This document shows positions 8,520 to 62,372 of a stretch of 64,000 bases of DNA, piece by piece. Below the pieces are notes generated by a model. It was not told where the DNA came from. It saw nothing but the letters and a program-made list of their open reading frames with translations, and made no database searches. The stretch is from the NCBI GenBank assembly GCA_964572455.1, contig CAZNFL010000005.1:219-64218 (forward strand), written 5' to 3'. The position numbers and the translations under genes are program-made. Every line of letters begins with the position of its first letter. The first letter of the stretch is position 1. Origin of the DNA: an uncultured Anaerolineaceae bacterium. Lineage in GTDB: Bacteria > Chloroflexota > Anaerolineae > Anaerolineales > UBA11579.

Positions 8520-8553
8520 GTCATTTCGAAGGAGCGCAGCGACTGAGAAATCC
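8520..8553 (+). repeat. family 1 module (GTCATTTCGAAGG...GAGAAATCC variant)
   Basis: Head/tail hairpin ATTTC...GAAAT, located in the divergent intergenic region. Confidence 0.6.
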
Positions 8554-8606
8554 GTACTGTATTTAGTTGCAAACGAACATTTCTGTTCTGATCGAGACTC
8601 GCTTTA

Positions 8607-8634
8607 TTGAGTGACACGGATTAAGTGCTAGAAT
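8607..8634 (+). promoter_or_regulatory. sigma70-like promoter with extended -10
   Basis: TTGAGT (8607-8612), 16-bp spacer counted to the TAGAAT hexamer (8629-8634), which carries an upstream TGc extended -10 (8626-8628). It sits about 15 nt before ATG 8650 with no SD, so the leader is very short. Confidence 0.5.
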
Positions 8635-8649
8635 CAATCATCAGCCGCA

Positions 8650-9972
8650 ATGCCTACTAACCCTTCCGAAGAACTTTTACGCATCCTCGACTCCGCCCGT
8701 CGCCTGGGCGTTGAGCTCGACGAGGCCGCCGCGCAGCAATGGCTGGCCGCCGTAGCCATCTCTCCCGGCGAGGAAGATGACATCGTGATGGATGTAAAGA
8801 CCGGCGTCTTTGGCCACCGCATCACTATGCTGGACTTCAGCGGCGAGGAACTGGCCCACTTCCGCAAGATCGGCAAGCTGGTGGAATTCAGCGATATCCC
8901 CGGTAAGGTGGAAACCGCCCTGGCGCTCTCCGGCTCGGCCGCCCAATCCAAGATCCAGACCTACCCGGGTGACGCCGATTTCTTTGAGCGCGTCAACATC
9001 ATCGCTCCCACCCGCCAGGATGCCTGCCGCATCCTCGGTGAGCTGATCCGCGAGAAAGCCATGAGCACCCTGGCCGGCCCGGGCTACAAGCTTATTGAAG
9101 TAAAGATGGGCAGCTACCAACAGAACGTAGTGCGTAGTGGCAAGCAGCTGCCCAAGGATTCGCCCATCTCATGGAATACGGACGAAGTCAGCCTTGGGGC
9201 ACTGGAATTGCAAGATGAGAAAGGCAAACCGCTCACCCTCACCTGGGAGCAGGCGGCCCAAGACCCGGGCTGGTGCAAGCTGGACTGGGTGGTGGCCGAC
9301 CTGGTGCGCAAACAACTCGTCAACGCCAGCAACATGCTGGACGCCACCTGGGAAGCCCCCGACGGCGCCATCACTCCGCTGGACGGCTACCTGGACCCTT
9401 ACTTCCAGGAAGTCTATTTGGAAGCCGAGTCCATCCCACTATTCACCAAGCTGGCCAAGCAAGTAGACGGCAACGCGCTGGACCATTACGTGGAACAACT
9501 TGAAAAAGAGGCGCGCAAATACATCACCAAGGATCCTAACTTTGGCAAGGCGGCTAAACGCATGTACAACATCTTCCGCCTCACCGGCCGCTACGAGGAA
9601 GCCGCCTTCCTGCGCGAATTGTTTGACGAGCCTGCCACGGTGCTTTACCAGGTGTGGTCGCTCATCCGCACCATCGATGATTGCTTTTCTCCGGGAGTTA
9701 CATTTGAGCTGGATGCTCTGCTAGGCCAAACGGACCAATTGATCATCAACGTCACCAAGGCTTTGGAGGGTGAACAGGAAGAGGAGATCGTGCGGGAGCT
9801 GTTGCAATTGCGCGATGTCCTCTCGCGCGAGCAGGACTACGATCGTTTATCTACCCGCGCCGAAGCCGCCCGCGCCGAGTTGATCAACCTGGTGAATAAC
9901 TTCTATTACGAACGATTGACAGGGGTACCGACGATCAAAGCATATATGGTTGGTTTAGGGGACAAGAGCTAA
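8650..9972 (+). CDS. nucleotidyltransferase-fold protein of unknown function (Pol-beta/cGAS-like motif set)
   Basis: 440-aa ORF. Motif LSGS(95-96)-x11-D108aD110 (nt 8932-8979), a later beta-strand acidic residue KLD212WVV (nt 9283-9285), and a helical C-terminal half. Confidence 0.5.
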   Translation: MPTNPSEELLRILDSARRLGVELDEAAAQQWLAAVAISPGEEDDIVMDVKTGVFGHRITMLDFSGEELAHFRKIGKLVEFSDIPGKVETALALSGSAAQSKIQTYPGDADFFERVNIIAPTRQDACRILGELIREKAMSTLAGPGYKLIEVKMGSYQQNVVRSGKQLPKDSPISWNTDEVSLGALELQDEKGKPLTLTWEQAAQDPGWCKLDWVVADLVRKQLVNASNMLDATWEAPDGAITPLDGYLDPYFQEVYLEAESIPLFTKLAKQVDGNALDHYVEQLEKEARKYITKDPNFGKAAKRMYNIFRLTGRYEEAAFLRELFDEPATVLYQVWSLIRTIDDCFSPGVTFELDALLGQTDQLIINVTKALEGEQEEEIVRELLQLRDVLSREQDYDRLSTRAEAARAELINLVNNFYYERLTGVPTIKAYMVGLGDKS

Positions 9973-9989: not shown

Positions 9990-10182
9990 GTCATTCTGAG
10001 CGCTCCCCTTGTCATTCTGAGCGGGTCAATAAGACTCCACCAGAACCGCCGAACTACTCCAGTGAAGAATCCATGGAGCCTAATCTCTCCGACACCACCC
10101 TCTTCTGCGTCTCATTCTTTTCCCGTGTCATACTGAGCGATACCGCCTTTGTCATTCCGGAGTGCTCCTCCGCGAACGGACC
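9990..10182 (+). repeat. cluster of four family 1 module heads
   Basis: GTCATTCTGAGCG at 9990 and 10011 (tail AGTGAAGAATCC ends at 10072), GTCATACTGAGCG at 10127, GTCATTCCGGAGTG at 10151. Confidence 0.8.
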
Positions 10183-14196: not shown

Positions 14197-14279
14197 CTTC
14201 GCCCTCTTTACTTCCTAAACAACAAGTCCTTGAACTCCTACTCGCCGGTGATATTGACATAACCGGCCAATTCACCCTC
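14193..14279 (+). pseudogene. relic duplicate of the 5' end of the SCO1664-family gene
   Basis: Nt 14217-14276 versus 14410-14469: 46/60 identical by my hand alignment. Peptide PKQQVLELLLAGDIDITGQFT versus NKEKTLQLLLTGDLDITGQFT. The relic frame then runs into a family 1 module. Confidence 0.7.
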
Positions 14280-14285
14280 CCTTTT

Positions 14286-14347
14286 GTCATTCCGAGCGGC
14301 ATAATGAAATCACTACCAGATAGGGACCCAACACAGCGAGGAATCCC
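14286..14347 (+). repeat. family 1 module
   Basis: GTCATTCCGAGCGG ... CAGCGAGGAATCC. Confidence 0.8.
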
Positions 14348-14403
14348 TATAACCTCATATTCCAAATAACCACATTCTGCCTATCGAGCCGCGTTTTTAC
14401 ACA

Positions 14404-15123
14404 ATGAACAAAGAAAAAACACTCCAACTCCTACTCACCGGCGATCTCGACATAACCGGTCAGTTTACCTGGGGCAGCAACTTCACCTTCTTAACCAAAG
14501 TACGCAGCGCCACAACTGTGCTGGACGCCGTCTACAAGCCCCAGCGCGGTGAGCGCCCCCTGTGGGATTTCCCCGCCGAGACCCTGGCCGGCCGCGAAGT
14601 GGCCGCCTTCCTGGTGAGCGAAGCACTGGGCTGGGACTTGGTGCCGCCCACCGTCTTCCGGCCAGATGGGCCGCTAGGCCCCGGCTCCCTGCAAGTTCAT
14701 GTAGCCCACGACCCCGAGCAACACTATTTCACCTTCGCTGCCGAAACCCGTGAGCGCCTGCGCCAAGTGGCCCTGTTCGATCTGCTGGTGAACAACGCCG
14801 ACCGCAAGGGCAGCCACATCCTGCTGGGCGCTGAAGGCAAACTTTGGCTGATCGACCATGGCATCAGCTTCCACGCCGAACCCAAACTACGCACCGTGGT
14901 CTGGGATTTTGTCGGCGAAGAATTTCCTGCTGACTTGCTGACGGATCTCGAACGCTTGGAAGATCAATTGCAGCCTAAGGCGGGGCTGCGCAAAGAACTA
15001 AGAACATATCTAAGCGCGGGAGAACTGGCCGCGCTCGCCACGCGCTTGGCGCAGCTGCTGGCTGACCCGCGCTTCCCCGCGCCGCCCGAGGGGGTTCGCG
15101 CCACCCCTTGGCCGTTGGTCTGA
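14404..15123 (+). CDS. SCO1664 family protein (PI3/PI4-kinase-like fold)
   Basis: 239 aa. A catalytic-loop-like NNADRKGSHILL and WLIDHGISF. Follows DUF3090, as is typical for this family. Confidence 0.7.
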   Translation: MNKEKTLQLLLTGDLDITGQFTWGSNFTFLTKVRSATTVLDAVYKPQRGERPLWDFPAETLAGREVAAFLVSEALGWDLVPPTVFRPDGPLGPGSLQVHVAHDPEQHYFTFAAETRERLRQVALFDLLVNNADRKGSHILLGAEGKLWLIDHGISFHAEPKLRTVVWDFVGEEFPADLLTDLERLEDQLQPKAGLRKELRTYLSAGELAALATRLAQLLADPRFPAPPEGVRATPWPLV

Positions 15124-15173
15124 GCGCTGCCCGCGCTGCCCAGAGTACAATCCCTCGCATGAAACGATGGCTT

Positions 15174-15231
15174 GCGTTGCTTCGCAACGCGTTGGAGAAA
15201 CTACTCGTCTGCCGCCGAGTAACGCTTCTCC
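15174..15231 (+). repeat. repeat family 2 copy
   Basis: GCGTTGCTTCGCAACGCGTTGGAGAAACTACTCGTCTGCCGCCGAGTAACGCTTCTCC. Confidence 0.85.
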
Positions 15232-15253
15232 ACATTCCCAAAGGTAGGTCGCC

Positions 15254-16276
15254 TTGAAACGCTGGCAGTTGTGGCTGGGCATCGCCATCAGCGTGTTTTT
15301 CCTGTGGCTGGTGCTGCGTGACCTGGACTTCGCCGCCTTTTGGGCGCAGGTGCAGACCGCCAACTACTGGTGGCTGCTGCCCGGCGTGGCTGTCTACATG
15401 CTCGCTGTGTGGGTGCGCGCCTGGCGCTGGCATTACCTGCTGCGCCCGCTCAAGGCCATTCCCACCACCACCATGTTCCCCATTGTCGCCATCGGCTATA
15501 TGGGCAATAACATCTACCCCGCTCGCGCCGGCGAGGTGCTGCGTGCCTATGTGCTCAAGAAAAAAGAAGGCGTGGCCATCTCGGCTTCTCTGGCCACTAT
15601 CATCGTGGAGCGCATTTTCGACGGCGTGGTCATGCTGGCCTTCATCTTCGTCAACCTGGGCGAGCTGGCCCGCCTGACCAAAACGGACACGGTCAACGCC
15701 AGTATTAGCATCCAACTGATCGCCTTTTGGGGCAGCCTGGTCTTCTTCTCCGCGCTGCTGGTTTTCCTGCTGGCTGCCATGTTCCCGTCGGCCAGCGAAC
15801 GCGCCCTGGCTTGGCTGGCAGCCCGCCTGGTGCCGCTGCGCTTCCGCGCCGGCGTGCTGGAGACCGGCTCGCGTTTCCTCGGCGGCCTCGAGGCGTTGCG
15901 CTCCCCGCTCGAGATCCTGATGGTCTTCCTCACCTCGGCGGTCATCTGGCTGCTGGAAACCGGCAAATATTGGTTCGTGATGCACGCCTTCAATTTCGAG
16001 GCCTCTTTCTTCGCCCTCATGCTGATGAACGGCGTGGTCAACCTGGCCACCACCATCCCCTCGGCGCCGGGCTACGTGGGCACTTTCGACGCTCCCGGCA
16101 TCGCCGTGCTGGAAGCCTATGGCATCCCGCAGGCGCTGGCCAGCAGTTACACCTTTGTGCTCCACTTTGCCCTGTGGCTACCCATCACCGCCTTGGGCGC
16201 CTACTACCTGGCGCGTGAGGGTATTAAATGGGGCGAAGTCCCCGCCGAGGTACCTCCTCAAGGGAAGGTCACATGA
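15254..16276 (+). CDS. flippase-like / lysylphosphatidylglycerol synthase TM-region family membrane protein (UPF0104)
   Basis: 340-aa multi-TM ORF with a TTG start after AAGGTAGG. The N-terminus WLVLRDLDFAAFW...WRWHYLL is typical of the family. Confidence 0.65.
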   Translation: MKRWQLWLGIAISVFFLWLVLRDLDFAAFWAQVQTANYWWLLPGVAVYMLAVWVRAWRWHYLLRPLKAIPTTTMFPIVAIGYMGNNIYPARAGEVLRAYVLKKKEGVAISASLATIIVERIFDGVVMLAFIFVNLGELARLTKTDTVNASISIQLIAFWGSLVFFSALLVFLLAAMFPSASERALAWLAARLVPLRFRAGVLETGSRFLGGLEALRSPLEILMVFLTSAVIWLLETGKYWFVMHAFNFEASFFALMLMNGVVNLATTIPSAPGYVGTFDAPGIAVLEAYGIPQALASSYTFVLHFALWLPITALGAYYLAREGIKWGEVPAEVPPQGKVT

Positions 16277-17565
16277 GGATCGCCATCATCGGCGCAGGTT
16301 TCGGCGGCATGGCCGCCGCCTACGATCTGAGCAAGGCCGGCCACCAGGTCACTATCTACGAAGCCGCCGCCCAGGTGGGCGGGCTGGCCGCTGGCTTCAA
16401 GCAGCCCAATTGGGACTGGTGGGTGGAGAAGTTCTATCACCACTGGTTCGCCTCCGATAAGCACATGCTTGGCCTTATCGCCGAGCTGGGCTGGAGCGAC
16501 CAGGTGCTCTTCCCGCGGCCCTATACCGTAATGTTCCACGAGGGCCGTTTCTACCCCTTCGACTCGATTCCCGCCGCTATTATGTTCCCCGGCCTGGGCT
16601 GGGGGCTGGACAAGATCCGCTTCGGCCTGGTGGGGCTCTACCTGCGCCTCACCAATAATTGGCGCCCGCTGGAGAAAACCACAGTGGACGCCTGGATGCG
16701 GCGCTGGGCCGGCGACCGGGTCTACGAGCGCATGTGGCTCCCACTGGTGGAGGGCAAGTTCGGTCCTTACGCGCGCGAGGTGAATATGGCCTGGCTGTGG
16801 GCCCGCCTGCACGCCCGCACCACGCGGCTGGGCACCTTTGCCGGCGGCTTCCAGGCTTTCGCCGATAAATTTGCCGCGCGGCTCAAAGAAATGGGCGTCG
16901 AATTTCTCATGCAAGCCCAAGTGCAGAGCATCATCCCCGAAGCGGGGAAGCTGAAGCTCACCGCCGGACCGGAGGGCGTGATCTTCGATCAGGCGCTGGT
17001 GACTACGTCACCCAGCCTGCTGGCCAAGCTGGCGCCCCGCCTCCCCGAAGACTATTTGCGCGGCCTGCTGGCGCTGAAAAGCATGGGCGCCGTGGTGATG
17101 ACCCTGGTGCTCGACCGCCAGCTTTCGGAGCAGGGCTACTATTGGTTCAATATCCCCAAGAGCGCCGGCTTCCCCTTCCTGGCGCTGGTGGAGCACACTA
17201 ACTTCCTCTCGCCCGAGCATTTTGGCGGCGACTACATCATTTATTGCGGCGATTACTTGGAAGCCGGCCACGAATATTTCTCGCTCTCCGACGAGGAGCT
17301 GCTCAAGCGCTTCGTCCCCGGCATCCAGCGCGTCAACCCGCACTTCCAGCCCGGCTGGGTGAAGCAGGTCTGGGTGCACAAGACCAACTACGCGCAGCCG
17401 GTGCCGCTGGTGAACCATTCGCAGAATATCCCCGACATCCGCACGCCCATCCCCGGCCTGTTCTTCGCCAGCATGTCCCAGGTCTACCCCTGGGACCGCG
17501 GCACGAACTTCGCCGTCGAGATCGGCCGCAAAGCGGCGGGCATGATGCTGGGAGATGGAAAATAG
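16273..17565 (+). CDS. NAD(P)/FAD-dependent oxidoreductase (amine oxidase / phytoene desaturase-like)
   Basis: The internal ATG 16273 overlaps the upstream stop (ATGA). Dinucleotide-binding motif IIGAGFGGMAAA. Confidence 0.75.
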   Translation: MRIAIIGAGFGGMAAAYDLSKAGHQVTIYEAAAQVGGLAAGFKQPNWDWWVEKFYHHWFASDKHMLGLIAELGWSDQVLFPRPYTVMFHEGRFYPFDSIPAAIMFPGLGWGLDKIRFGLVGLYLRLTNNWRPLEKTTVDAWMRRWAGDRVYERMWLPLVEGKFGPYAREVNMAWLWARLHARTTRLGTFAGGFQAFADKFAARLKEMGVEFLMQAQVQSIIPEAGKLKLTAGPEGVIFDQALVTTSPSLLAKLAPRLPEDYLRGLLALKSMGAVVMTLVLDRQLSEQGYYWFNIPKSAGFPFLALVEHTNFLSPEHFGGDYIIYCGDYLEAGHEYFSLSDEELLKRFVPGIQRVNPHFQPGWVKQVWVHKTNYAQPVPLVNHSQNIPDIRTPIPGLFFASMSQVYPWDRGTNFAVEIGRKAAGMMLGDGK

Positions 17566-17581
17566 CCGCCTCTGCTCGCGT

Positions 17582-17605
17582 GTCATCCTGAGCGAAGCGA
17601 AGGAG
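17582..17605 (+). repeat. family 1 module (GTCATCCTGAGCGAAGCGAAGGAG)
   Basis: Read directly. Ends 50 nt upstream of the GIY-YIG gene start. Confidence 0.75.
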
Positions 17606-17654
17606 TATCAGTACCCAAGACGAAATGATTTGCTCTTTTGTTTAATCCCACCCA

Positions 17655-17948
17655 ATGAAATCCAAAACTTATTACGTCTATATTTTGAGCGGCCCTGGTG
17701 CGATTCTCTACACGGGTGTCACCAGCGATCTCGAACGCCGCATTCTTGAACACAAACGAAAACTGATCAAGGGCTTTTCCAGTAAGTTCAACATGAATCG
17801 CTTGGTTTATTACGAAGCCTTCAACCATCCTGCAGATGCCATTGCCGCCGAAAAGAGAATAAAGGGGTGGCTTAGGAAGAAAAAACTGGATTTGATCCGA
17901 ACTATCAATCCGGAGTTCAAAAACCTTAGCGAGGATTGGGAATCGTAA
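17655..17948 (+). CDS. GIY-YIG nuclease family protein (small UPF0213 type)
   Basis: 97 aa: YYVYIL...LYTGVTSDLERRILEHK...RLVYYE...AIAAEKRIKGW. Confidence 0.85.
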   Translation: MKSKTYYVYILSGPGAILYTGVTSDLERRILEHKRKLIKGFSSKFNMNRLVYYEAFNHPADAIAAEKRIKGWLRKKKLDLIRTINPEFKNLSEDWES

Positions 17949-17974
17949 CCAATAGAGATTCGGATAGCTCTTCG

Positions 17975-18997
17975 CTAACCCCCCAAGAGTGACCCGAGGA
18001 AGCGCTGCACCAAATAGACGATCACTGGGAATAACAGAGGGATCAACAAGTTGCGCACAGTTTCTGGTTCCCAGGGCCAGGTGGAGATCTTGCGCACAAT
18101 ATCCAAACTTTCTTTGTGTGCGGAAATCGTGTTGCGGATCTCGGCCATCTCCGCATAAGACCCGCGGCGCGTGGTTCGTACCAGGCGAGCTGTTTCTTTA
18201 TTCAGGCCCTCACCCAGCTCAGAAAGCAGGCGACCTTTTTCGTTGCCCATGCGGCGGTGAATCCCGCCGATGGACACAAAGAAAAAGGCCAGCGTCGTGC
18301 TAACCAGCAAGATCGAAGTAATGTAACCGTTGGTGGTCATCAAGAATTGCGGCAGGGAAACCAAAATTAATATGTAGGCCAACAATACAAAAACCACGCT
18401 GCTCTGGGAGGAATAGCGGCTGAGGGCATAGAGCGCGGCCGGGTTAAATATATTCACCTCGACCTCGCGATAAAAGCGGCGCAATAGGAGCGCCTGGCGT
18501 AGTGCGCGGGTGAAATACAGGCCAACCCAGCCGCCAACTAGCAGGAAGCTAAGCAGTTCGTAGACTGGAGACACCCGGCCAACCAGGGGCGACAAGCTCA
18601 GCGCAAGTTGGTAATTAAAGTAGCCGAACAGGAACCCCACCAGCACGGCGGGAGCGGCCAGCCATTCAGGCAGGGAGATAAAGTCGGCCAGGGCACTTTC
18701 AAGCTTTGCTAAGCCTTTATTGCTGTGCTTGAACAAGCCGGTCAAAATAAGGCGGACTTGGTCGTCCAGAACGAACCAGACAGCAAATAGCAAAATGGGA
18801 TAGGCGCCTCCCGTGATCAAATAGGGCTCTATGACTCCGAAAGGTAAAACGCCAAGCCGCCAGGCTTCCAGGTGCAAGCCGAGGGCGAAGATCACCGAGA
18901 TCAAAAAGCCCAGCAGCCAGGCCGGGACTGGCAGGCGGTGGATAAAGGCGTGTAAGGCGTAAAGCCAACGCGGGGAAGGTTTCGGGGTTGTCGGCAT
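17975..18997 (-). CDS. polytopic membrane protein, unknown family (paralog 1)
   Basis: Start taken at MPTTPKPSPRWLY, by analogy with the paralog. Multi-TM, with the conserved C-terminus TWPWEPETVRNLLIPLLFPVIVYL. Confidence 0.6.
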   Translation of the reverse strand: MPTTPKPSPRWLYALHAFIHRLPVPAWLLGFLISVIFALGLHLEAWRLGVLPFGVIEPYLITGGAYPILLFAVWFVLDDQVRLILTGLFKHSNKGLAKLESALADFISLPEWLAAPAVLVGFLFGYFNYQLALSLSPLVGRVSPVYELLSFLLVGGWVGLYFTRALRQALLLRRFYREVEVNIFNPAALYALSRYSSQSSVVFVLLAYILILVSLPQFLMTTNGYITSILLVSTTLAFFFVSIGGIHRRMGNEKGRLLSELGEGLNKETARLVRTTRRGSYAEMAEIRNTISAHKESLDIVRKISTWPWEPETVRNLLIPLLFPVIVYLVQRFLGSLLGG

Positions 18998-19022
18998 GGA
19001 GGGCAATGAATAACGCGGAGCG

Positions 19023-20045
19023 CTAACCCCCGAATAGCGCTCCAAGATATCGCTGAATTAAATAGACGATCACCGGAAATAGCAAGGGGATCAACAAATT
19101 ACGCAAGGTTTCAGGTTCCCAGGGCCAGGTGGGGACCTTCTTCACAATCTCCCAACCATCCTTAAGCGTGGAGATCGTATTGCGCATTTTGTCCAAGCGC
19201 GAATAGTCCTCACGGCGCACAGCTTTGTGGACGCGTGCGTACACATCCTCCAAATCCTGGCCGAGCTCGGACAGTAGGCGCGCTTTCTCGTCGCGCATAC
19301 GACCGTTAATGCCGCCCAGGGATACAAAGAACAGGGTGAACATCGAGCCAATAAGCATGATCGAAGTAATGTAACCGTTGGTGGTCATCAAGAACATCGG
19401 CAGGGAAACCAGAATTACTGTGTAGGTCAACAATACAAAAGCCACGCCGGTCTGGGAGGAATAGCGGCTGAGGGCATAGAGCGGGGCCGGGTTAAATATA
19501 TTCACCTCGACCTCTGCATAATAGCGGCGCAATAGGAGCGCCTGGCGCAATGCGCGTAAGAACATCAGGCCAACCCAGCCGCCAACCAGTATGAAGCCGA
19601 GCATCTCGTAGGCTGGAAACACCTGGCCGGCCAGCGGGGACAAGCTCAACGCAATTTGGAAATTAAAGTAGCCGAAAGGAATCCCCACCAGCAAGGCCGA
19701 CGCGGCCAACCAGTTAGGCAGGGAGATAAAGTCAGTCAGCACACCTTCGAGCTTTGCTAGGCCTTTATTGCTTTCCTTGAAGAAGGCGGTCAAAGCGAGG
19801 CGGGCGCGGTTGTCCAAGAAGATCCAGGCAGCAAGAAGGAATATGGGGTAATTGCCTACAGTGATTAAATAGCCGTCTATAAATCCGGAGGGTAAAACGC
19901 CGCGCCGCCATGCCTCCAGGTGCATGCCGATGGAGCTGATTAGAATGACCAGGAAGCCCACCAGCCAGGCCGGGAAAGGCAGTCGGTCGATAAAGGCGAA
20001 GAAACCGTAAAGCCAACGCGGGGAGGGTTTCGGGGTTGTGGGCAT
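19023..20045 (-). CDS. polytopic membrane protein, unknown family (paralog 2)
   Basis: Collinear with paralog 1 along the full length, with the same N- and C-terminal motifs. 25-bp spacer between the two. Confidence 0.6.
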   Translation of the reverse strand: MPTTPKPSPRWLYGFFAFIDRLPFPAWLVGFLVILISSIGMHLEAWRRGVLPSGFIDGYLITVGNYPIFLLAAWIFLDNRARLALTAFFKESNKGLAKLEGVLTDFISLPNWLAASALLVGIPFGYFNFQIALSLSPLAGQVFPAYEMLGFILVGGWVGLMFLRALRQALLLRRYYAEVEVNIFNPAPLYALSRYSSQTGVAFVLLTYTVILVSLPMFLMTTNGYITSIMLIGSMFTLFFVSLGGINGRMRDEKARLLSELGQDLEDVYARVHKAVRREDYSRLDKMRNTISTLKDGWEIVKKVPTWPWEPETLRNLLIPLLFPVIVYLIQRYLGALFGG

Positions 20046-20125
20046 GAGGACCGTGGCGGACGCGCTCATTATAAAGGCAGCCCTCCCAACGAGCTTATAC
20101 TTAGCCGCGAATAAGGAGGAATCCG

Positions 20126-20913: not shown

Positions 20914-21366
20914 ATGGCCACCAAACGAACCCCCAGCGGCGGCAAACGCCGCCGGCACCTCACTGCTGCTCAAGCCAAGTTCGTCACCTTTGTGTTCAGC
21001 CTTACCGGCTTGTCTTACATCGCCGCCGGGGCGGCGCTGATCCTCATCCCGGCCTGGTTCCTGGAGAACGTGGGCCGCTTCGAGCCATTCAACCGCCATT
21101 ACATGGGCGACGCCGGCGCCTTTGTGCTGGCCGTCGGCCTGGGCGTCTGGCTGATGCGCAAGGACCCCTGGGCGCACAAGAGCATGCTGCTGGCCGGCCT
21201 GGCTGCCACGCAGTTGCATGCCCTCAACCATCTCTATGACGCCGTGTTCATGCACGCCGGGGTAGAGCTCTGGCTGCGGGATGCGCTGCCCAATACCTTG
21301 ATCGCAATTCTTTATCTGATCGCATTTTTGCTTGTATGGCGGGGTGGTGCAAAAATTGCTAGCTGA
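20914..21366 (+). CDS. small membrane protein, unknown function
   Basis: 150 aa with about 4 hydrophobic segments. No family recognised. Confidence 0.5.
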   Translation: MATKRTPSGGKRRRHLTAAQAKFVTFVFSLTGLSYIAAGAALILIPAWFLENVGRFEPFNRHYMGDAGAFVLAVGLGVWLMRKDPWAHKSMLLAGLAATQLHALNHLYDAVFMHAGVELWLRDALPNTLIAILYLIAFLLVWRGGAKIAS

Positions 21367-21401
21367 TAGAATGACACAAAGGGCTGAATCAAAGAAATGA
21401 T

Positions 21402-22091
21402 ATGGATGCTCAACAAGAACGAAACCGAGACATCACAAAGTTAGCTGAATTTATCGTCAGAGAAATTCCGTTGGTTCACTCTATGACTTCAAATGAATTC
21501 GGCTATGAAAACCCTGTGTTGATTTGCATGGATGCCGTTTTGTCGATAAATCGCAAATATGCTGCATTCGTCACACCTAGAATAGACAATTTCAAAAGAG
21601 AATACCCGGACATTGATACCCTTGAGGCTTTGACCAAGCTAATCAAGCAAAAGGGCTACGAGGGTTTTTGCGCGGTCTGGAATTACCGGCATATAGAACG
21701 GGTTGGCCTGCTGCATCGCCTGTCCACGAAATTTCTCGAGTATAAATATCAAAGCAATCGCACTAATGATTTGGCTGCCATGAAAGATTGGGCGTCAAGT
21801 GTTGATGTAATGGATTATTTAAATTTCAATGTCAAAGGAATCGGTCTGAAGACCTTTCAGTATCTCAGAATGCTGTTAGGCGTGCCAACAGTTAAACCAG
21901 ACCGACACATTTCCCGAGCCGTGGCCTTAGCGTTGGGGAGAAGCTCCAGTGAGATTGAATCCATCAGTTTGCTGGTTAGTGCTTCAAAGCAACTTGGCCT
22001 CGATGTAACTAATGTCGATCATAATATTTGGAAATTCTTTTCCGAAAAAAAGACCTTAAAAAACAATCACCAACTTGACACACCCGAATAA
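21402..22091 (+). CDS. HhH-GPD superfamily DNA glycosylase-like protein
   Basis: 229 aa. The helix-hairpin-helix plus Gly/Pro...Asp loop VKGIGLK150TFQYLRMLLGVPTVKPD167RHISR (nt 21849-21902) parallels the EndoIII LPGVGRKTA...VDTHxxR motif. AT-richer codon usage than the flanks. Confidence 0.55.
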   Translation: MDAQQERNRDITKLAEFIVREIPLVHSMTSNEFGYENPVLICMDAVLSINRKYAAFVTPRIDNFKREYPDIDTLEALTKLIKQKGYEGFCAVWNYRHIERVGLLHRLSTKFLEYKYQSNRTNDLAAMKDWASSVDVMDYLNFNVKGIGLKTFQYLRMLLGVPTVKPDRHISRAVALALGRSSSEIESISLLVSASKQLGLDVTNVDHNIWKFFSEKKTLKNNHQLDTPE

Positions 22092-22126
22092 GGATGGAGC
22101 TTTCTTTTCTATGACATCCGAGGGAA

Positions 22127-22354
22127 CTAACGGCGAAGCAAGACAGTTAGGATATAGAAATCCGCGAACTGGACAATGCTATGTGATACCGCTTCCCAGT
22201 CATCCCCGCACATCGACTTTATCTGTGAGGCGCGCGGCTCTACGATTTCTGTTAATGCTCTGATCTTGGCTAACTCGTCCGAGTTCTTGAATTGCTGTGG
22301 GTTGGGAAAAGCAATGAAATCCGTGTAAAACTTGTACTCGTACTTTGCGCTCAT
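22127..22354 (-). CDS. hypothetical small protein
   Basis: 75-aa ORF with GGAGG 6 nt upstream of the ATG. No family recognised. Confidence 0.45.
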   Translation of the reverse strand: MSAKYEYKFYTDFIAFPNPQQFKNSDELAKIRALTEIVEPRASQIKSMCGDDWEAVSHSIVQFADFYILTVLLRR

Positions 22355-22389
22355 CTCGTGCCTCCGCTGGGCGCGAGATTCTACTACTA

Positions 22390-22418
22390 AAAAGACCAGC
22401 TAATTAGCTGGTCTTTTT
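22390..22418. terminator. bidirectional intrinsic terminator
   Basis: AAAAGACCAGCTAATTAGCTGGTCTTTTT: an 11-bp (or longer) stem flanked by A-run and T-run on both strands. Confidence 0.75.
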
Positions 22419-22562
22419 GTTTGCCTGATACTCTTTTTCGGCTCTCTCTAGGTCTTTGGGGGTGGTTTTTAGCAAGCCGCGCAACGCCTCTTTAAACGAG
22501 AGGGGTATCTTTACGGGCTTTTCATGGGGCGGCTTCTTCTGGTCTTTTTTAGTCTTAGGCAT
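22404..22562 (-). CDS. possible 52-aa lysine-rich ORF
   Basis: ATG 22562 to TAA 22404-22406 (MPKTKKDQKKPPHEKPVKIPLSFKEALRGLLK...). The stop lies inside the terminator hairpin. No SD, and only 30 bp from the divergent DUF3800 start. Confidence 0.25.
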   Translation of the reverse strand: MPKTKKDQKKPPHEKPVKIPLSFKEALRGLLKTTPKDLERAEKEYQANKKTS

Positions 22563-22592
22563 TAGAGTCCTATGTAACAGAGGGCTATAAAA

Positions 22593-23456: not shown

Positions 23457-23624
23457 GGCAAGTTGCCTTGCCTCACAGCACGTGGCTGGCACTCACCACT
23501 AGCAACCAAAGTATACGCCAATTAGCTTATTTGTCAAGGTTTTTAATAGAATCCTCATACATATTAAGCCCGCTTGACAATCTCTCTGTATATCAGCCGC
23601 TTGCCCGCGACCTTGCTAATCGCC

Positions 23625-23900: not shown

Positions 23901-23919
23901 AAGGGCTTCATTACCTTCT

Positions 23920-24090
23920 TCAGCCTACAAGAGGGCATTTTACTAACTCGATTTTTGTGAAAGTTTCGAGTCGCCCATTAATTTCGGTTCCTTGGTTGAG
24001 GTGAAAACGCTCCCTGATCTGCGCCTCAGGAACTTTGCTGACTAAAATATTTATGAGATCGTGCTTGGGAATGTGAGTACTTCTTGGCAT
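23920..24090 (-). CDS. hypothetical 56-aa ORF
   Basis: ATG 24090 to TGA 23920-23922 (MPRSTHIPKHDLINILVSKVPEAQIRERFHLNQG...), translated by hand. No family recognised. Confidence 0.25.
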   Translation of the reverse strand: MPRSTHIPKHDLINILVSKVPEAQIRERFHLNQGTEINGRLETFTKIELVKCPLVG

Positions 24091-50197: not shown

Positions 50198-50269
50198 AAG
50201 CTAAGTGAAAAAAACTAAGGATAGGAACCTTTTAAATAAGAAGGCTCGGCTTGCGGGGGGTAGCAGAAC

Positions 50270-50356
50270 AAGGTAATTCGGAGAAACAAGGTTATATGGA
50301 TTCTTCGCTGGTGTCGGTTCTCAATCTAGTACTGGCTTAATACCCGCTCAGAATGA
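50270..50356 (-). repeat. long-form family 1 copy (subfamily B)
   Basis: AAGGTAATTCGGAGAAACAAGGTTATATGGATTCTTCGCTGG...CCCGCTCAGAATGAC. Homologous to 32538-32623. Confidence 0.85.
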
Positions 50357-50412
50357 CAAATAGAGCGGATGGCGCTCGAAATGATAAAAATGAGTATGTC
50401 GTTCGGAATGAA

Positions 50413-50598
50413 GTGTGACGAGGGAGGACGGCGCAAGCCATCTTTTTAAATAAAGGGATCCCTCGTCGTTTCTCTCCTCGGGATGACAGGTATGACGAAA
50501 GGGGACAGCGTAAGCCATCCTCTTAAATGGATTCCTCGTCGCTTCGCTCCTCAGAATGACAAGTATTACGAAAGAGGACGGCTGCGCCGTCCTCTTTT
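50413..50598 (-). repeat. 73-77-bp tandem repeat, about 2.5 units, each ending in a family 1 head
   Basis: Units at 50413-50489, 50490-50562 and 50563-50598. The last unit contains the hairpin GAGGACGG-CTGCG-CCGTCCTC. Confidence 0.8.
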
Positions 50599-55110: not shown

Positions 55111-55142
55111 AAGGGCGGGTCTTAGACCCGCCCTTTTGGTTT
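55111..55142 (+). terminator. intrinsic terminator of acnA
   Basis: AAGGGCGGGTC-TTA-GACCCGCCCTT followed by TTGGTTT. Confidence 0.8.
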
Positions 55143-55150
55143 AAACATGA

Positions 55151-55223
55151 TTTGCAGAACATGGTTATTCGGAAGACAAGGTTATAAAGATTCTTCGGCT
55201 CGCCGAGCTCGCCTCAGAATGAC
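55151..55223 (-). repeat. long-form family 1 copy (subfamily A)
   Basis: The 3' 35 nt ATTCTTCGGCTCGCCGAGCTCGCCTCAGAATGACA are identical to the copies at 30851-30923 and 62301-62372. Confidence 0.9.
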
Positions 55224-55255: not shown

Positions 55256-56734
55256 CTACTTCCCTTCGCGCAATTCCATACGGCCATTCACGGCCGCATA
55301 ACTCATCATGCCCTGGGGTACGTGCGGGTCGATCTGCAGGTCGCCTGAATCCATAGCTTCCCAGATCACCTGGAATGGCACTTTGTCTTTGTGCCACTTC
55401 TCCGCCATCACCACCCCATGCCCCGGCAACACTGTGAAGGCGATCAGCCGCGGGTCATCTGGATTGCGCAGCGATTCGGCGCGGGCGAAGGCGGCTTTGA
55501 TGCCGCGCGCCTGGGCTTCAGTCGCGCAGGACACCAGGTAATGATAGTAAGGGGGATCGAGTGGGACATATTCAACCAGCGCAGGATTAAATTTTTTCAC
55601 GCCGCGGTGGCCGTGAAGTTTGGAGCGCACCACGGGCACCTCGCTCTTCACACCGGCCACAGAGGCATGCGGAATCCGCGGCAGCAGCTTGTCCATATCC
55701 ATCATCTCAACCGCTTCGGAGGAAGGCGGATCGTTGCGCTTGCCTTCCACGTGGCGCACCTGTGCGCCGGCCCCATCGGCGCGCACTCCCACGATCACCG
55801 CCAGGTCGTCATCGGTGAGGCGCCCCTTGTGCACTGGGCGGGCGCTGCCGGTGATGGTGGCGATCATGGCCTGCACGCGCGGGTCCCAGGTGGCGAAGCA
55901 GCCTTCGCTGTATTGGCGGGCTACGCCTTCGTTGACCGCCGGCACCTGCACAATGTCTTCAATGCGCACCATATCGGTGAAGAACCCACGCGAGCCGATC
56001 TCGTTCCCGCCGCGGCGCATGGCTTCGGGAGTGCTCATGCTCTCCCACATTTCGCGAGTGATCAACGGTTCGATCAGCTCGTGGTTGGTAACCTCAAACG
56101 TGCTTTCGGTGGTCACAGTGCGCAACACAATGTCGGTATAAAAAGCCTCGGGGCTGGTATTCTCGCTGACCGGATAGGCTCCGACCAGGTCAAAGTGAAA
56201 AGCGCGTTCAGGATGCTTGTCTCCAACCACCAGCAGGATGCGAATGCTTTTGGCCTGGGCTTGCAGCATCCGCGATAGCGAAAGCACCGGCCCGCCGCGT
56301 ACGCCCTGATCGATCAACACGCGCGGCGCCGAGGGAGAGAGCCCCTCAAACAGGAATTCCTTCTCAGGCGGCGGCTGCTTAGCCAACGCAGTTTTAAAGC
56401 GGCCGATCCACTCGTCGAATTCTTGCGGAGTGATCTGGATGATCGTGTAAAGCACGGGGGAGTGTTTCAAGCCGAACATGCGGCGGGCGGAAAAGAAGAG
56501 CGCTTCGCGCCAGGGGATGGACTTGCCCAGGGGCGCGGTGGTGAAAAGCACCTTGGTATTTTCGGTGGGCTTTTCCACCACGCTATGACCCAGGTCCCCG
56601 AAGCGGCCGAGGAGGCCTTGGATGAATTCCTCGAGCATTGGGGACATGGGGCCGGGCACGAAAGATACTTCGATCGTGCGCAGCCAATTGTGGGTGGGAT
56701 TAGAAACTAATTCAGTAGTCTTCGTCGCTTGCAT
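55256..56734 (-). CDS. conserved-looking hypothetical protein, 492 aa, no family recognised
   Basis: Start taken at ATG 56734 (GAGG 7 nt upstream). Soluble, with no TM segment or signal peptide. Confidence 0.55.
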   Translation of the reverse strand: MQATKTTELVSNPTHNWLRTIEVSFVPGPMSPMLEEFIQGLLGRFGDLGHSVVEKPTENTKVLFTTAPLGKSIPWREALFFSARRMFGLKHSPVLYTIIQITPQEFDEWIGRFKTALAKQPPPEKEFLFEGLSPSAPRVLIDQGVRGGPVLSLSRMLQAQAKSIRILLVVGDKHPERAFHFDLVGAYPVSENTSPEAFYTDIVLRTVTTESTFEVTNHELIEPLITREMWESMSTPEAMRRGGNEIGSRGFFTDMVRIEDIVQVPAVNEGVARQYSEGCFATWDPRVQAMIATITGSARPVHKGRLTDDDLAVIVGVRADGAGAQVRHVEGKRNDPPSSEAVEMMDMDKLLPRIPHASVAGVKSEVPVVRSKLHGHRGVKKFNPALVEYVPLDPPYYHYLVSCATEAQARGIKAAFARAESLRNPDDPRLIAFTVLPGHGVVMAEKWHKDKVPFQVIWEAMDSGDLQIDPHVPQGMMSYAAVNGRMELREGK

Positions 56735-56758
56735 CACAAAACCTCGCTTTGGGGCCTT

Positions 56759-56787
56759 AAGTATAATATTAACCTGTCCTATCCTCA
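56759..56787 (-). promoter_or_regulatory. sigma70-like promoter
   Basis: Minus strand: TTGAGG (56782-56787), 17-bp spacer, TATACT (56759-56764). Confidence 0.45.
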
Positions 56788-57047
56788 AAATCATTAAAAA
56801 GCGCCCAAGAGATTGTGATCTAGGCAACAAACAGGTCAGCCCAGGTCATGCTCAGCTTGACAGATCGGTGATCAGCCTTGTCTCTTCCGCCATTTCGTGC
56901 ATAAATACGGCTGTGAGCCTGAATTGGTTGAGCGTCCAGTGCCGCCTTGCCTCGAGTACTGCCGGGGCGATCTACGCCCTGGCAACTTTGGAGCCTGTCA
57001 AGTTATGATGACCCCCCACCCCCTCTCCCCAACAATACAACTTGCCA

Positions 57048-58272: not shown

Positions 58273-58384
58273 GAGTTAACTATGCGAACAAGATCTTCTT
58301 GGATAGGAATTGAATGATAGAATCCGAGCGATATTCTACTCAGGAAGAACCTAAACCGAGGGCGCCGTGTCAGCAGGGAATAAG

Positions 58385-60054: not shown

Positions 60055-61757
60055 CAAAACTCCCCGACTTCTGCAACGCGCAATTTCTCGATGGCCAGCA
60101 TGCCGCCGCCGGCGACCAGCATCAGGATGGTACTCAGCGCCATGGCCTGCCCATAGGTGAGGGTGCCGGGTTGCGCCAGCAGGCGATAGATCAAGACCGG
60201 GATGGTGGGATTCTCCGGACGGGCGATGAGGGCCGTGGCGCCAAATTCGCCGAGCGAAATGGCGAAGGCGAACATAGCTGCCACGAGCAGGGCGCGGCCC
60301 ACCAGCGGAAGGTCTATGTAACGCAGCACTTGCGCAGGCGCAGCGCCCAGGACGGCGGCGGCCTGCCTGAGCCGCGGCCGAATACTGCGCAACGCGGGCG
60401 TGAGGCTGCGCACTACAAAGGGCAGGGCTACCAGGCTGTGTGCCAGCGGGATGAGCAAGGGGGAGGTGGCCAGATCCAGCGGCGGGCCATTCAAGGCGAC
60501 GATGAAGCCCAGTCCAAGCGTGACCGCCGAGGTGCCGAGAGGCAGCATTAATAGCGGGTCGAGTAGCCGGCTGAGCGGCGCGTCCCCGCGCCGCGCCAGG
60601 GCCCAAGCGGCCGGCAAGCCGATGGCCAGCGCCAGGGCGACGGTGGAGCCGGCGTAGACCAGCGAGGTGCGAATGGCTTCACCGGGGGTGGCGAAGAACA
60701 CAGAGCCGCGCGGGTCCTCGCTTAAAGCCAGGTAATAATCCAAGGTCAGGCCGGGTGGGGCCGCGGCTTGGCCGCGCTCGGCGCCCAACCGCGAGAAGGA
60801 GCGCAGCGCCAATCCGCCCAGCGGCGCGGCGAAAAATATAGCCAAGAGGATGAGGAACGCGCCGGCCGCCCACTTAGCGCGCCGCGAAGCAAAAGGCTGG
60901 GCCACGGCCTGCGGAGCGCGCAACTCCAGCGGGCGCGAAAGTTTCGCCGAAAGGCGCGTGTAGATGACTGTCAGCGCCAGTGTGCACAATAATTGGATCA
61001 ATGCCAGTGCGGCCGCGGTGGGAAGATCAAATAGCGCCACAGTCTGGTAATAGATCTCGGTTTCCAAAGTGGCAAAGCGCGGGCCGCCCAAGATCAGGAT
61101 GACGCCGAACGAAGTGAAATCGAAAATGAAGACGAGCAAGGCCGACGCAGCCAGAGCCGGGGCGATCGTGGGTAGGGTGACCTGGCGGAAGACCTGCCAG
61201 GGATTGGCTCCCAGGCTGCTAGCAGCCTGTTCGATGCGCGGGCTGAGCCGCGCCCAGAAATCGCCGACCAAACGCAACACGATGGTCAGGTTGTAGAAGA
61301 CGTGGGCGACCAAGATGGCGCCGAAGGTGTTCACGAATTGGAGCGGCGGGCTATCCAGGCCGAGCAAGCCCATAGCGGCCTGGTTGACCCAGCCGCGCGG
61401 CCCAAGCAGGGCATCAAAGGCCGCCGCCACCACCAGAGTGGGCAGCACGAAGGGCACGCCGCTGAGGGCGCGCAGCAAGCTCTTGCCGCGGAAGCGATGG
61501 CGGGCAACCAAGTAGGCGGCGGGCAAGCCCAGCGCCAGGGTGAGCAGCGTGGAGAGCGCCGCTTGCCAAAAAGTGAAGCCGATCACACCGCGCAGCCCGG
61601 CGTTGGAGAGCACCGCGACGAAAGGCTGCAGCCAACCTTGGCCAAGGGCGAAACTGAGATCGAGGATGCTGGCGAGCGGATAAAAGTAAAAGACGGCCAG
61701 GAAGGCCAGTGGCAGCAGCCACAAAAGCAAAGGGGCTAAGAGCCGCGCATATCTCAC
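60054..61757 (-). CDS. ABC importer permease, duplicated two-domain type (ThiP/FbpB-like)
   Basis: 567 aa with two tandem permease halves. GTG start overlapping the upstream stop (GTGA). Confidence 0.8.
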   Translation of the reverse strand: MRYARLLAPLLLWLLPLAFLAVFYFYPLASILDLSFALGQGWLQPFVAVLSNAGLRGVIGFTFWQAALSTLLTLALGLPAAYLVARHRFRGKSLLRALSGVPFVLPTLVVAAAFDALLGPRGWVNQAAMGLLGLDSPPLQFVNTFGAILVAHVFYNLTIVLRLVGDFWARLSPRIEQAASSLGANPWQVFRQVTLPTIAPALAASALLVFIFDFTSFGVILILGGPRFATLETEIYYQTVALFDLPTAAALALIQLLCTLALTVIYTRLSAKLSRPLELRAPQAVAQPFASRRAKWAAGAFLILLAIFFAAPLGGLALRSFSRLGAERGQAAAPPGLTLDYYLALSEDPRGSVFFATPGEAIRTSLVYAGSTVALALAIGLPAAWALARRGDAPLSRLLDPLLMLPLGTSAVTLGLGFIVALNGPPLDLATSPLLIPLAHSLVALPFVVRSLTPALRSIRPRLRQAAAVLGAAPAQVLRYIDLPLVGRALLVAAMFAFAISLGEFGATALIARPENPTIPVLIYRLLAQPGTLTYGQAMALSTILMLVAGGGMLAIEKLRVAEVGEF

Positions 61758-62227
61758 TTAAAATTCCAGCGCGTAGCGCTTTGCGGAAAATCTTTTTCGC
61801 GCCAGGCAAAAATTTTTGAGGCGAGCAGCTTGAAGATCAAACCGGGCCCTTGCATGGGCATCCCATATTTCTTTTTGTAGTCCTTGTCGAGAGAGCGCAA
61901 AACCGAGCTGTCCTTCACCTCGGCGACAATGCCTTCGAGGATGACTACTTCGTCCCCGCTTTCCAAATGTACGCTGACCTGCGGCGCGGCGGCCAGGTTG
62001 CGGCCCTTGCGCGAATCGGCCCCGGTGCTGAAGTAGAAAGCGCCGGCGTGCCACAAGCCCCACACCGGGGCAGCGTGGGGGCCCTGGGCACCGGCGGTGC
62101 TCACCCAATAATTGCGGGCGGCGGCCATGCGTTCCGCGACGAAATCCCACGGCAGCAGACCGGCACCTTCGCATGCGGCGACGATGCCGTAACCGGGCAT
62201 GAAAGGCCGGCTGTGTTTGGTTTTCAT
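61754..62227 (-). CDS. pyridoxamine 5'-phosphate oxidase fold family protein
   Basis: Start at ATG 62227 after AAGGAG. NYWVSTAG...PHAAPVWGLW is typical of the PPOX family. Confidence 0.65.
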   Translation of the reverse strand: MKTKHSRPFMPGYGIVAACEGAGLLPWDFVAERMAAARNYWVSTAGAQGPHAAPVWGLWHAGAFYFSTGADSRKGRNLAAAPQVSVHLESGDEVVILEGIVAEVKDSSVLRSLDKDYKKKYGMPMQGPGLIFKLLASKIFAWREKDFPQSATRWNFK

Positions 62228-62300
62228 ATGCTGAATCTCCTTCGACGCATTTCGAATCCCGCAAGCAAGATATTGTGGCCCATAAATCCGGATCATTGAG

Positions 62301-62372
62301 TTGCAGAATCCGGTTATTCCGAAGACCGCATCATAATAATTCTTCGGCTCGCCGAGCTCGCCTCAGAATGAC
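62301..62372 (-). repeat. long-form family 1 copy (subfamily A)
   Basis: See the 55151-55223 copy. Lies inside the thiamine operon, between the SBP and PPOX genes. Confidence 0.9.

Follow-up and report, generated by a model that had tools for sequence, protein, structure and literature searches.

Dispersed GTC-tagged hairpins in an Anaerolineaceae chromosome and their probable GIY-YIG partner, Ssn

Introduction

Short hairpins recur between the genes of a chromosomal stretch from an uncultured Anaerolineaceae bacterium (Chloroflexota, Anaerolineales; contig CAZNFL010000005.1 of assembly GCA_964572455.1), which raises the question of what these repeats are and which protein, if any, they belong to. 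The stretch analysed, referred to here as the window, is 64,000 nucleotides long. A preliminary description of the window had taken the hairpins for a repetitive extragenic palindrome (REP)-like, non-autonomous and possibly mobile family, and left undecided whether the family had been formally characterised. This assignment was right in kind: a TGTC tag, a stem that opens with AT and a C-rich tail are features of the CGTC-tagged REP superfamily (Di Nocera et al. 2013; PMC3733652), and the hairpins have all three. The class to which they belong has already been described (PMC3733652; Chenal et al. 2025; PMC11893778). The reading favoured here, with a probability of roughly 0.78 on the sequence comparisons below, is that the hairpins form a GA-mismatch subfamily of GTC-tagged repeats, that their partner is the Ssn protein encoded at 17655-17948, and that they work at the level of single-stranded DNA (ssDNA). 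The parent class is known under the names CGTC-type REPs, Neisseria dRS3/NTS and Ssn-related motifs (SRM).

The CGTC-tagged REPs, which include the Neisseria dRS3 and Rickettsia RPE repeats, carry an unpaired CGTC tag, or TGTC or CCTC in its place, followed by a perfect stem of 8-9 bp that opens with A-T, a loop of 4-5 nt and a short, C-rich unpaired tail (PMC3733652). They lie mostly downstream of open reading frames (ORFs), have no associated transposase, and were reported from five phyla, the Chloroflexi not among them (PMC3733652). The Neisseria element NTS, CGTCATTCCCGCGMAVGCGGGAATCYRG, is bound by SsnA, a 94-aa single-domain GIY-YIG protein of Neisseria meningitidis (PMC11893778). SsnA binds NTS solely as top-strand ssDNA, is inactive on double-stranded DNA (dsDNA), RNA and the reverse strand, and cuts a few nucleotides upstream of the element; cleavage depends critically on the GTC, and binding on the 3' C (PMC11893778). 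The NTS loop is dispensable, in that neither its identity nor its extension blocks cleavage, and ssnA genes are typically flanked by the motif (PMC11893778).

A hairpin family with a conserved tandem G·A mismatch

With two mismatches at most, the head motif GTCATTCYGAGCG has 20 matches in the window where 3.27 were expected, and none of 100 shuffles reached 20. Complete hairpins, defined as GTCA, a 4-nt arm, GA, 5-75 nt, GA and an arm pairing with the first, number 16 against 0.71 expected (100 dinucleotide shuffles, maximum 4), and all 16 lie outside confident coding sequence (CDS). The dispersed hairpin family proposed earlier is thus real. Its minimal unit reads (T)GTC-ATTCY-GA-G...C-GA-RGAAT-C(C), the middle being a variable stem-loop; the stem of this form has nine positions, opening A-T, T-A, two of which are G·A, and the loop ranges from 3 to about 41 nt. 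Arms are ATTCY in the majority of window copies, with ATCCY, ATTTC and ATTGC as further types. The GTC itself was demanded by the search, so that its presence in all copies is built in, but position -1 is T in 90% of copies, which makes the tag TGTC in about 90%. Upstream of the tag, positions -7 to -3 are pyrimidine-rich, and the three successive positions after the arm are T (58%), C (57%) and C (64%; n = 69).

The pairing of the head ATTC with the tail GAAT, suggested in the preliminary description, is borne out by covariation of the outer-stem Y/R pair. In a scan of IMG/VR contigs that allowed all four Y/R combinations and matched at least 120 stretches, this pair was T-A in 83, C-G in 30, T·G in 3 and C·A in none of 116 unique hairpins among the matches listed, a scope that also applies to the following count and to the GC range of these contigs given below. 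Further in, 105 of 113 hairpins have G-C as their first inner pair, and Watson-Crick pairing at the deeper positions exceeds that of dealt controls (53 vs 30, 43 vs 23 and 49 vs 32). Between the outer and inner stems, 5'-GA-3' stands opposite 5'-GA-3' as a conserved tandem G·A mismatch, which is found on the tagged strand only. This one-strand conservation, together with the Y/R covariation, argues for intrastrand folding.

General resources returned no ready name for the hairpins. Rfam gave no family matching them over the whole window at the gathering threshold (only a T-box hit), and at E up to 1 two hairpin-rich spacers gave only chance sub-threshold matches (mir-549, sroD). A literature search with the head sequence strings found only primers and vector sequences. 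A hammerhead or K-turn reading of CUGAG...CGAAG was set aside by eye, as the hammerhead core nucleotides and the K-turn bulge are absent.

A GIY-YIG gene between hairpins

One gene of the window stands between two copies in inverted orientation. The features of this unit, with relatives' loci denoted by L numbers, are:

17581-17606, plus strand: hairpin TGTCATCCTGAGCGAAGCGAAGGAGT of the ATCCT type, 5' of ssn; also present ahead of the homologues in L210, L219, L232 and L233
17655-17948, plus strand: ssn homologue encoding a 97-aa single-domain GIY-YIG protein (Pfam GIY-YIG, E 3.8e-13, residues 6-77)
17958-17976, minus strand: truncated inverted hairpin gattcggatagctcttcgct, 3' of ssn; head part deleted, judged against complete ones in L210 and L233

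The gene starts 49 nt downstream of its first hairpin and, like the truncated hairpin behind it and a head-only variant at 4985-5008, was absent from the preliminary description. No further domain was found in the 97-aa protein by the Pfam scan, and NCBIfam gave no match. A tblastn search with the protein against an N. gonorrhoeae record recovered a 94-aa ORF at 43% identity (E 4e-13), below the tblastn value of E < 1e-10 used for SsnA homologues in the published work (PMC11893778). With Y6 and Y17 in place and 16 NTS copies around it within 3.3 kb, this ORF was taken as the SsnA orthologue, and pairwise BLASTP against it gives 43% identity with E 7e-22. Residues Y9, Y19 and E66 of the window protein align with Y6, Y17 and E64 of SsnA, the three mutated catalytic residues, and Y9, Y19, R29, H33, E66 and N85 are invariant in 26 homologues. 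The best relatives in the PDB (UPF0213) reach only E 1e-5.

The ssn gene is under purifying selection relative to its relatives (dN 0.11, dS saturated), and its third-position GC content (GC3) is 0.55 against 0.7-0.84 in neighbouring genes. The relatives of both FolA and Ssn carry Anaerolineales names. When the Ssn protein was searched by tblastn against 209 loci (1.6 Mb), only the window's own gene was found; ssn is rare relative to the hairpins. A single-protein search of viral contigs for Ssn returned nothing; an alignment-based scan did find homologues. No Y1 or DDE transposase and no other nuclease was found among the approximately 55 ORFs of the window. On these grounds the product of ORF 17655-17948 is the probable cognate protein of the hairpins.

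The same hairpins flank ssn in relatives

All homologues at 55-84% identity to the window protein are flanked by GA-type hairpins in inverted orientation. These relatives are seven, namely the Anaerolineales loci L210/L219, L220/L221, L231, L232 and L233, a Planktothrix plasmid and a Spirosoma plasmid, so that the hairpin-ssn-hairpin arrangement is present at eight loci including the window and in three phyla (Chloroflexota, Cyanobacteria and Bacteroidota). The upstream hairpin is complete and the downstream one truncated in the window, whereas both are complete in L210, L219-L221, L231-L233 and the Planktothrix and Spirosoma plasmids. L233 is syntenic with the window, and its downstream hairpin, like the Planktothrix hairpins, is of the ATTCT type, the dominant type of the window. 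Four homologue ORFs run into the downstream hairpin and end in SSLRSE*. The presence of an SsnA homologue in the window and of the same hairpins around the ssn genes of its relatives therefore places the family among the CGTC/TGTC-tagged REPs, or SRMs. Homologues at 39-48% identity carry perfect-stem SRMs instead of GA-type hairpins, and the hairpin class thus tracks the Ssn clade. For 24 viral-contig homologues, a generic detector (GTC plus a 5-bp arm) had a background of 89% in shuffled flanks; its statistics were discarded and inspected examples alone were used.

Some of these loci show further features. At L231 (GCA_026129335.1), whose Ssn is 61% identical, the ssn-flanking tag is TTC/ATC (cTTCATCCTGAGCG...) instead of GTC, which may be a co-variation of tag and enzyme. 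On the Planktothrix agardhii plasmid NZ_LR882964.1 (L234, 13309-19446), DISARM genes (drmD, an MmeI-type enzyme, drmA) enclose ssn together with a gene for a "four helix bundle protein", and pairs of GA-type hairpins lie within the annotated MmeI CDS at 15405-15596 and 17094-17273. In the window, ssn is followed directly by two tandem paralogous genes on the minus strand (17975-19045 and 19023-20069; 84% identity over 300 nt, no Pfam match), a pair that also stands 3' of ssn in L233.

The dispersed copies

The remaining copies of the window, from single heads to composites, are the following:

4985-5008, plus strand: head-only variant CGTCATTACGAGGAGGGCGGC, antisense to both neighbouring genes
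8519-8553, plus strand: short hairpin of the ATTTC type in a divergent spacer
9990-10010, plus strand: head-only unit, GTCATTCTGAGCG with a pyrimidine tract
10011-10108, plus strand: long form B; hairpin 10011-10071 with a loop of about 41 nt, and a 3' extension ending TTCTGC
10127-10182, plus strand: two head-only units, GTCATACTGAGCG... and GTCATTCCGGAG...
14217-14276, plus strand: what remains of an ancestral CDS 5' end, abutting the next element; its duplicate, 77% identical, is at 14410-14469
14277-14381, plus strand: long form B, made up of a pyrimidine tract, hairpin 14286-14345 and 3' extension, inserted into the downstream gene at its 5' end
25467-25524, plus strand: hairpin with a 38-nt inner stem-loop, left half of an inverted pair
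25577-25614, minus strand: short hairpin, right half of the same pair, heads outward
30723-30773, plus strand: hairpin GTCATTCTGAAGG...ACTGAAGAATC, antisense partner of the next copy
30847-30923, minus strand: subfamily A composite, an invariant 34-nt double-GA hairpin with 3' extension, 8 nt past the folA stop
31493-31643, minus strand: array of the ATTGC type; hairpin 31493-31540, two partial 42-nt units 31541-31624 and a head-only ATTCC unit 31633-31643
32529-32623, minus strand: long form B; hairpin 32565-32623 and 3' extension
32639-32669, minus strand: stubs stacked 5' of that long form, head-only at 32639-32651 and a partial head at 32660-32669
50263-50357, minus strand: long form B; hairpin 50299-50357 and 3' extension
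50373-50412, minus strand: two degenerate head-only units, 50373-50385 and 50400-50412
50457-50487, minus strand: short hairpin of the ATCCC type
50530-50560, minus strand: short hairpin GTCATTCTGAGGAGCGAAGCGACGAGGAATC
55147-55223, minus strand: subfamily A composite, 33 nt past the stop of gene 55256-56830
62296-62372, minus strand: subfamily A composite, 17 nt past the stop of a solute-binding protein gene

Most of what the preliminary description had listed is found again here: the copies at 8520, 14286 and 17582, the four heads in 9990-10182, the pairs 25467/25614 and 30723/30923, and the copies at 32538-32666, 50270-50598, 55151-55223 and 62301-62372. Its tandem variants at 31511-31660 do form a tandem of three 42-nt units, but their head differs (GTCATTGCGAG) and one further unit is an ATTCC head only. 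Two weak copies fared less well, that at 21365-21377 being a mere 8-nt remnant, AGAATGAC, and that at 58319-58337 not convincing. Nor do the hairpins occupy most intergenic spacers, as had been stated; by hand count, only about half of the roughly 25 spacers longer than 60 nt contain a copy.

The composite forms fall into the two subfamilies recognised earlier. Subfamily A comprises three copies of 83 nt that are 80-81% identical and share an unvarying hairpin of 34-35 nt, an identical 35-nt 3' part having been noted before; the 34-mer occurs in only four genomes of a 185,579-species collection, all Anaerolineales metagenome-assembled genomes. The two copies assigned to subfamily B are indeed similar, although at 89% identity over 64 nt rather than about 85%. 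Copies 10011 and 14286 are further B-type forms on the plus strand, so that the uniform orientation claimed for the long forms does not hold; orientation follows the flanking gene. The long forms are expanded in the loop, to about 41 nt, and A and B have in common a 45-nt 3' extension, CC.TATAACC..GTCTTCSGAATAACC....TTCTGCAA, for which a consensus fold was sought and none found. ATTCYGA-like half-sites recur in both orientations inside the composites.

Head-only units consist of a pyrimidine tract and GTCATTCYGAGCG, repeat with a period of 21-28 nt, and are always stacked 5' of a complete hairpin (9990-10010, 10127-10182, 31633-31643, 32639-32669 and 50373-50412). There are no tail-only units. 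The same polar footprint is present in other phyla (L227, L019, L033, L046, L076 and L099).

Gain, loss and insertion footprints

Conservation of position across distant relatives had been named in the preliminary description as the observation that would count against mobility. Comparison of orthologous spacers, based on FolA orthologues at 60-85% identity, finds them filled in some relatives and empty in others, and the mobile reading thereby withstands that test. In four loci thyA and folA overlap directly (GTGA or TTGA) and thus represent empty sites, while differing hairpin forms part the two genes in the window and nine other loci. The spacer at 31493-31643 holds a single copy in L129, L135-L137 and L140 and is empty in L138, L139, L141 and L142; copies have likewise been gained and lost among orthologues of the folA/ABC spacer, and an array upstream of ssn has two units in one assembly and seven in another. 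Copy number is therefore dynamic. Some insertions persist, the 14286 element being common to the window and L233.

Six insertions lie in coding 5' ends, and each is accompanied by a CDS duplication of 21 to about 60 nt. In the window, where 14217-14276 corresponds to 14410-14469, about 60 nt are duplicated at 77% identity; L233 (190-560) has 43 nt; and the duplications upstream of folA in L129, L130, L131, L133 and L134 measure 21-26 nt, are identical within L130 and within L133, and start exactly at the ATG. The dead upstream CDS copy always abuts the pyrimidine tract of 8-11 nt that precedes GTC. The earlier statement that no copy interrupts a confident CDS accordingly needs one amendment: complete copies do lie outside, but 14286 splits an ancestral CDS 5' end that has since been restored by duplication. 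At the other 10 of 11 sites, all purely intergenic, no flank repeat exceeds shuffles, and the exception at 14286 is a CDS duplication of 44-60 nt, not a short target-site duplication of fixed length. A 16-nt match near 9990 was rejected as a target-site duplication, since it is 330 nt distant, within the following gene, and was put down to chance.

Weighing the alternatives

The position of the copies invites the view that they act mainly as RNA, stabilising the upstream mRNA, marking processing or attenuating transcription in the manner of E. coli REP/BIME sequences. Heads usually begin 8-33 nt past a stop codon (hand tally), several copies lie within the ribF-thyA-folA-ABC gene string, and the outer stem pair includes T·G but never C·A. 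By hand tally, all 11 solitary complete copies are sense to the adjacent gene, the two antisense copies being partners in inverted pairs; an automated count gives 11:1 (binomial p 0.006). In two other data sets, both with crude ORF calls, the bias is weaker: 21:6 for Anaerolineales loci and 82:49 for those from IMG/VR. Predicted folding is no stronger than that of shuffled sequence (11 window copies, mean z -0.2 with RNA parameters and about 0 with DNA parameters), which weakens the mRNA-stability idea put forward in the preliminary description and led to the argument from thermodynamic stability being dropped. No T-run follows the hairpins, whose tails continue as CCATAAAC, CCTTATAG and similar, and with fold z about 0 their identity as intrinsic terminators was also rejected. 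The lack of an Rfam family for two hairpin-rich spacers even at E up to 1 points the same way. Near-identical stem sequence across phyla, on contigs of GC 0.33-0.65, speaks for recognition by a protein of sequence rather than of structure alone, and SsnA itself does not bind RNA (PMC11893778). A main role as RNA is accordingly unlikely.

A host protein, perhaps a nucleoid protein, gyrase or a regulator, might instead bind the hairpins as duplex DNA, with the Ssn association secondary. This would suit the half-sites in both orientations within the composites and has a parallel in E. coli BIMEs, which bind IHF and gyrase (as reviewed in PMC3733652). It is rendered most improbable by the directional motif, with its 5' tag and 3' C, and by the conservation of the tandem G·A on one strand, although a duplex would be fully paired there. 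Still less weight attaches to two transposase-based readings. Short tagged palindromes, inverted doublets (25467/25614 and 30723/30923), arrays and a preference for gene 3' flanks are also what would be expected of REPs or REPINs whose mobility depends on a RAYT (a Y1 transposase of the IS200/IS605 type) with its gene in another part of the genome; but the tag is (T/C)GTC rather than GTAG, no transposase was found associated with the CGTC class (PMC3733652), the approximately 55 window ORFs contain no Y1_Tnp domain, and the hairpin-flanked gene is a GIY-YIG gene at every locus examined. The term "MITE-like" used in the preliminary description, for miniature inverted-repeat transposable elements, does not hold in the strict sense, which would have the hairpins derive by deletion from a DDE-type insertion sequence and GTCAT...ATGAC act as their terminal inverted repeats. 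The outward-pointing heads of the inverted pairs and the composites of 80-105 nt with conserved ends would fit such an origin, and yet the 10 purely intergenic sites lack target-site duplications, most copies are solitary single hairpins, and the window encodes no DDE transposase. Moreover, the polar head-only stubs, always 5' of a complete hairpin, are not predicted by cut-and-paste of inverted-repeat elements. Both transposase-based readings are therefore next to negligible.

Against the pairing of these hairpins with Ssn at the ssDNA level, several points have to be set. The sense orientation of the solitary copies is what an RNA-level role would likewise predict. The hairpin adjoining ssn is of the ATCCT type while most dispersed copies are ATTCY, and the link within the window to the major type is consequently indirect; it rests on the downstream hairpin of L233, the Planktothrix homologue and the SSLRSE tails. 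The published SRM pattern, HGTCWYN(0-2)YYVSBRHN(0-5)WNVSBRGN(0-2)RNCYNB (PMC11893778), matches none of the window hairpins and gives one unrelated hit against 0.36 in shuffles, although it recovers nine NTS in the N. gonorrhoeae locus as a positive control and also matches proteobacterial-type loci. It fails on the window copies because the tandem G·A puts A/G at S/B positions. Finally, the view is one of 64 kb, and other ssn paralogues or enzymes elsewhere in the genome are possible.

The orientation of the hairpins also changes along the window. Near 28.9 kb, with convergent genes meeting at 28870/28882, the top strand of the hairpins changes from plus to minus and the strand component of third-position GC skew moves from -0.115 to +0.048; the region from about 25.6 to 30.7 kb may be a replication landmark. 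As hairpin strand, gene strand and skew all flip there, replication and transcription as causes of the bias are inseparable within 64 kb.

Relation to known systems

The closest counterpart is NTS/SsnA. Both systems pair a small (94-97 aa) single-domain GIY-YIG protein having the same catalytic residues with a gene position between inverted hairpin repeats and many dispersed intergenic copies, and both hairpins have a 5' (C/T)GTC tag, a stem opening AT-TC-C/T, a 3' ...GAAT-C and an extendable loop, tolerance of which was shown for SsnA. The tag and 3' C of the window hairpins match the features critical for SsnA cleavage and binding (PMC11893778). The differences lie in the conserved tandem G·A of the stems, loops of 3 to about 41 nt, the composites with their lineage-specific 45-nt 3' extension, the pyrimidine tract upstream of the tag, and the host, a member of the Anaerolineales (Chloroflexota) without known competence biology. 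With the CGTC REPs the hairpins share the CGTC/TGTC tag, A-T in the first two stem positions, the short C-rich unpaired tail, a location downstream of ORFs between unidirectional or convergent genes, inverted dimers and the lack of an associated transposase; they depart from them in the two G·A mismatches among nine stem positions and in the wide variation of the loop.

At the level of organisation, the system resembles REP/BIME and REPIN elements with RAYT. There too a nuclease gene, present once and inherited vertically, stands between hairpins of its own and is accompanied by hundreds of non-coding satellites, and a tagged hairpin is recognised in ssDNA, as it would be by Ssn. The RAYT of E. 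coli and Pseudomonas has an HUH/Y1 fold and a GTAG tag, whereas Ssn is GIY-YIG with GTC, and mobility of REPINs by RAYT has population-level support whereas Ssn-dependent mobility is a hypothesis. The "peel and paste" elements IS200/IS605 are similar in the one-strand ssDNA recognition of subterminal hairpins, in cleavage a few nucleotides away and in the orientation bias expected from exposure of the lagging-strand template. The window system differs from them in that it lacks a Y1 transposase and left and right ends defined by guide sequences, and shows no sign of excision circles.

By analogy with Neisseria, action at the ssDNA level is most likely. The tagged strand, once single-stranded at a replication fork, in imported ssDNA or as the non-template strand of a transcription bubble, would fold ATTCY/RGAAT around two sheared G·A pairs and the variable inner stem-loop. 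We infer that the window protein cuts these particular hairpins and that Ssn drives their spread. The dispersed hairpins would then be non-coding satellites of the hairpin-ssn-hairpin unit that multiply, decay and are lost in gene 3' flanks, and transcription through them would be a by-product. A stronger version would make the GA-type hairpins actively mobile ssDNA elements: Ssn, cutting in the pyrimidine tract ahead of the tag, would define their 5' end, and the cut ends would be joined illegitimately into new sites, for example during ssDNA uptake or at stalled forks. This version is tentative and on balance doubtful. The head-only stubs stacked 5' and the gene-rescuing CDS 5' duplications of 20-90 nt (window, L233 and the folA of five relatives) are footprints that would fit it.

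Surroundings of the hairpins

The window is a housekeeping chromosomal region that includes holA, trpS with a T-box leader, a nusA-infB-rbfA-truB-ribF string, thyA, folA and acnA. The T-box leader (6257-6492, minus strand), which scores 108 bits against Rfam RF00230, precedes the gene for a tRNA synthetase of the Trp/Tyr type (5198-6196, minus strand). A second dispersed element of about 70 nt, at 15167-15235, 28791-28860 and 40326-40395 with a partial copy at 3526-3546, has two palindromes, GCGTTGCTTCGCAACGC and TGGAGAAGC...GCTTCTCCA, and is unrelated to the GTC-tagged hairpins. Beside GTC-tagged copies there are also GC-rich hairpins at 5019-5039, 55113-55133 and 25631-25650, GGGCGGGTCTAAGACCCGCCC (two copies, inverted) and GGGGCGGGGAGACCCCGCCC, which look like terminators; similar ones adjoin GTC-tagged hairpins in L122 and L130. 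An islet of low GC3 at 21402-25398 (0.46 vs about 0.72), including a DUF3800 protein (22593-23456) followed by an AAA_25 and MarR-like protein (24223-25398), may be acquired DNA.

Implications

Where homologue ORFs read into the hairpin, they terminate in SSLRSE*, VILSEAKNP and similar peptides, and spurious short ORFs with peptides of this kind are common in genome annotations. Since the SRM pattern misses the whole GA-mismatch subfamily, surveys of Ssn and SRMs may under-count the Chloroflexota, Cyanobacteria and Bacteroidota.

How such repeats spread is left unexplained by the published descriptions of the class (PMC3733652; PMC11893778), and three features bear on it here: the polarity of the head-only stubs, the duplicated CDS 5' ends and the 3' extension common to subfamilies A and B. 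The filled and empty sites, stubs and duplications of these loci are natural footprints that could reveal the route of spread. If the hairpins were indeed actively mobile ssDNA elements, this would be the first REP-like propagation pathway driven by a GIY-YIG protein and would explain the spread of the "transposase-less" CGTC REPs. The link between hairpin and Ssn gives a dispersed hairpin type a name and a testable partner. Each Ssn/hairpin pair is, moreover, a candidate sequence-specific ssDNA nuclease, and the loop-expanded natural forms suggest that cargo may be tolerated in the loop.

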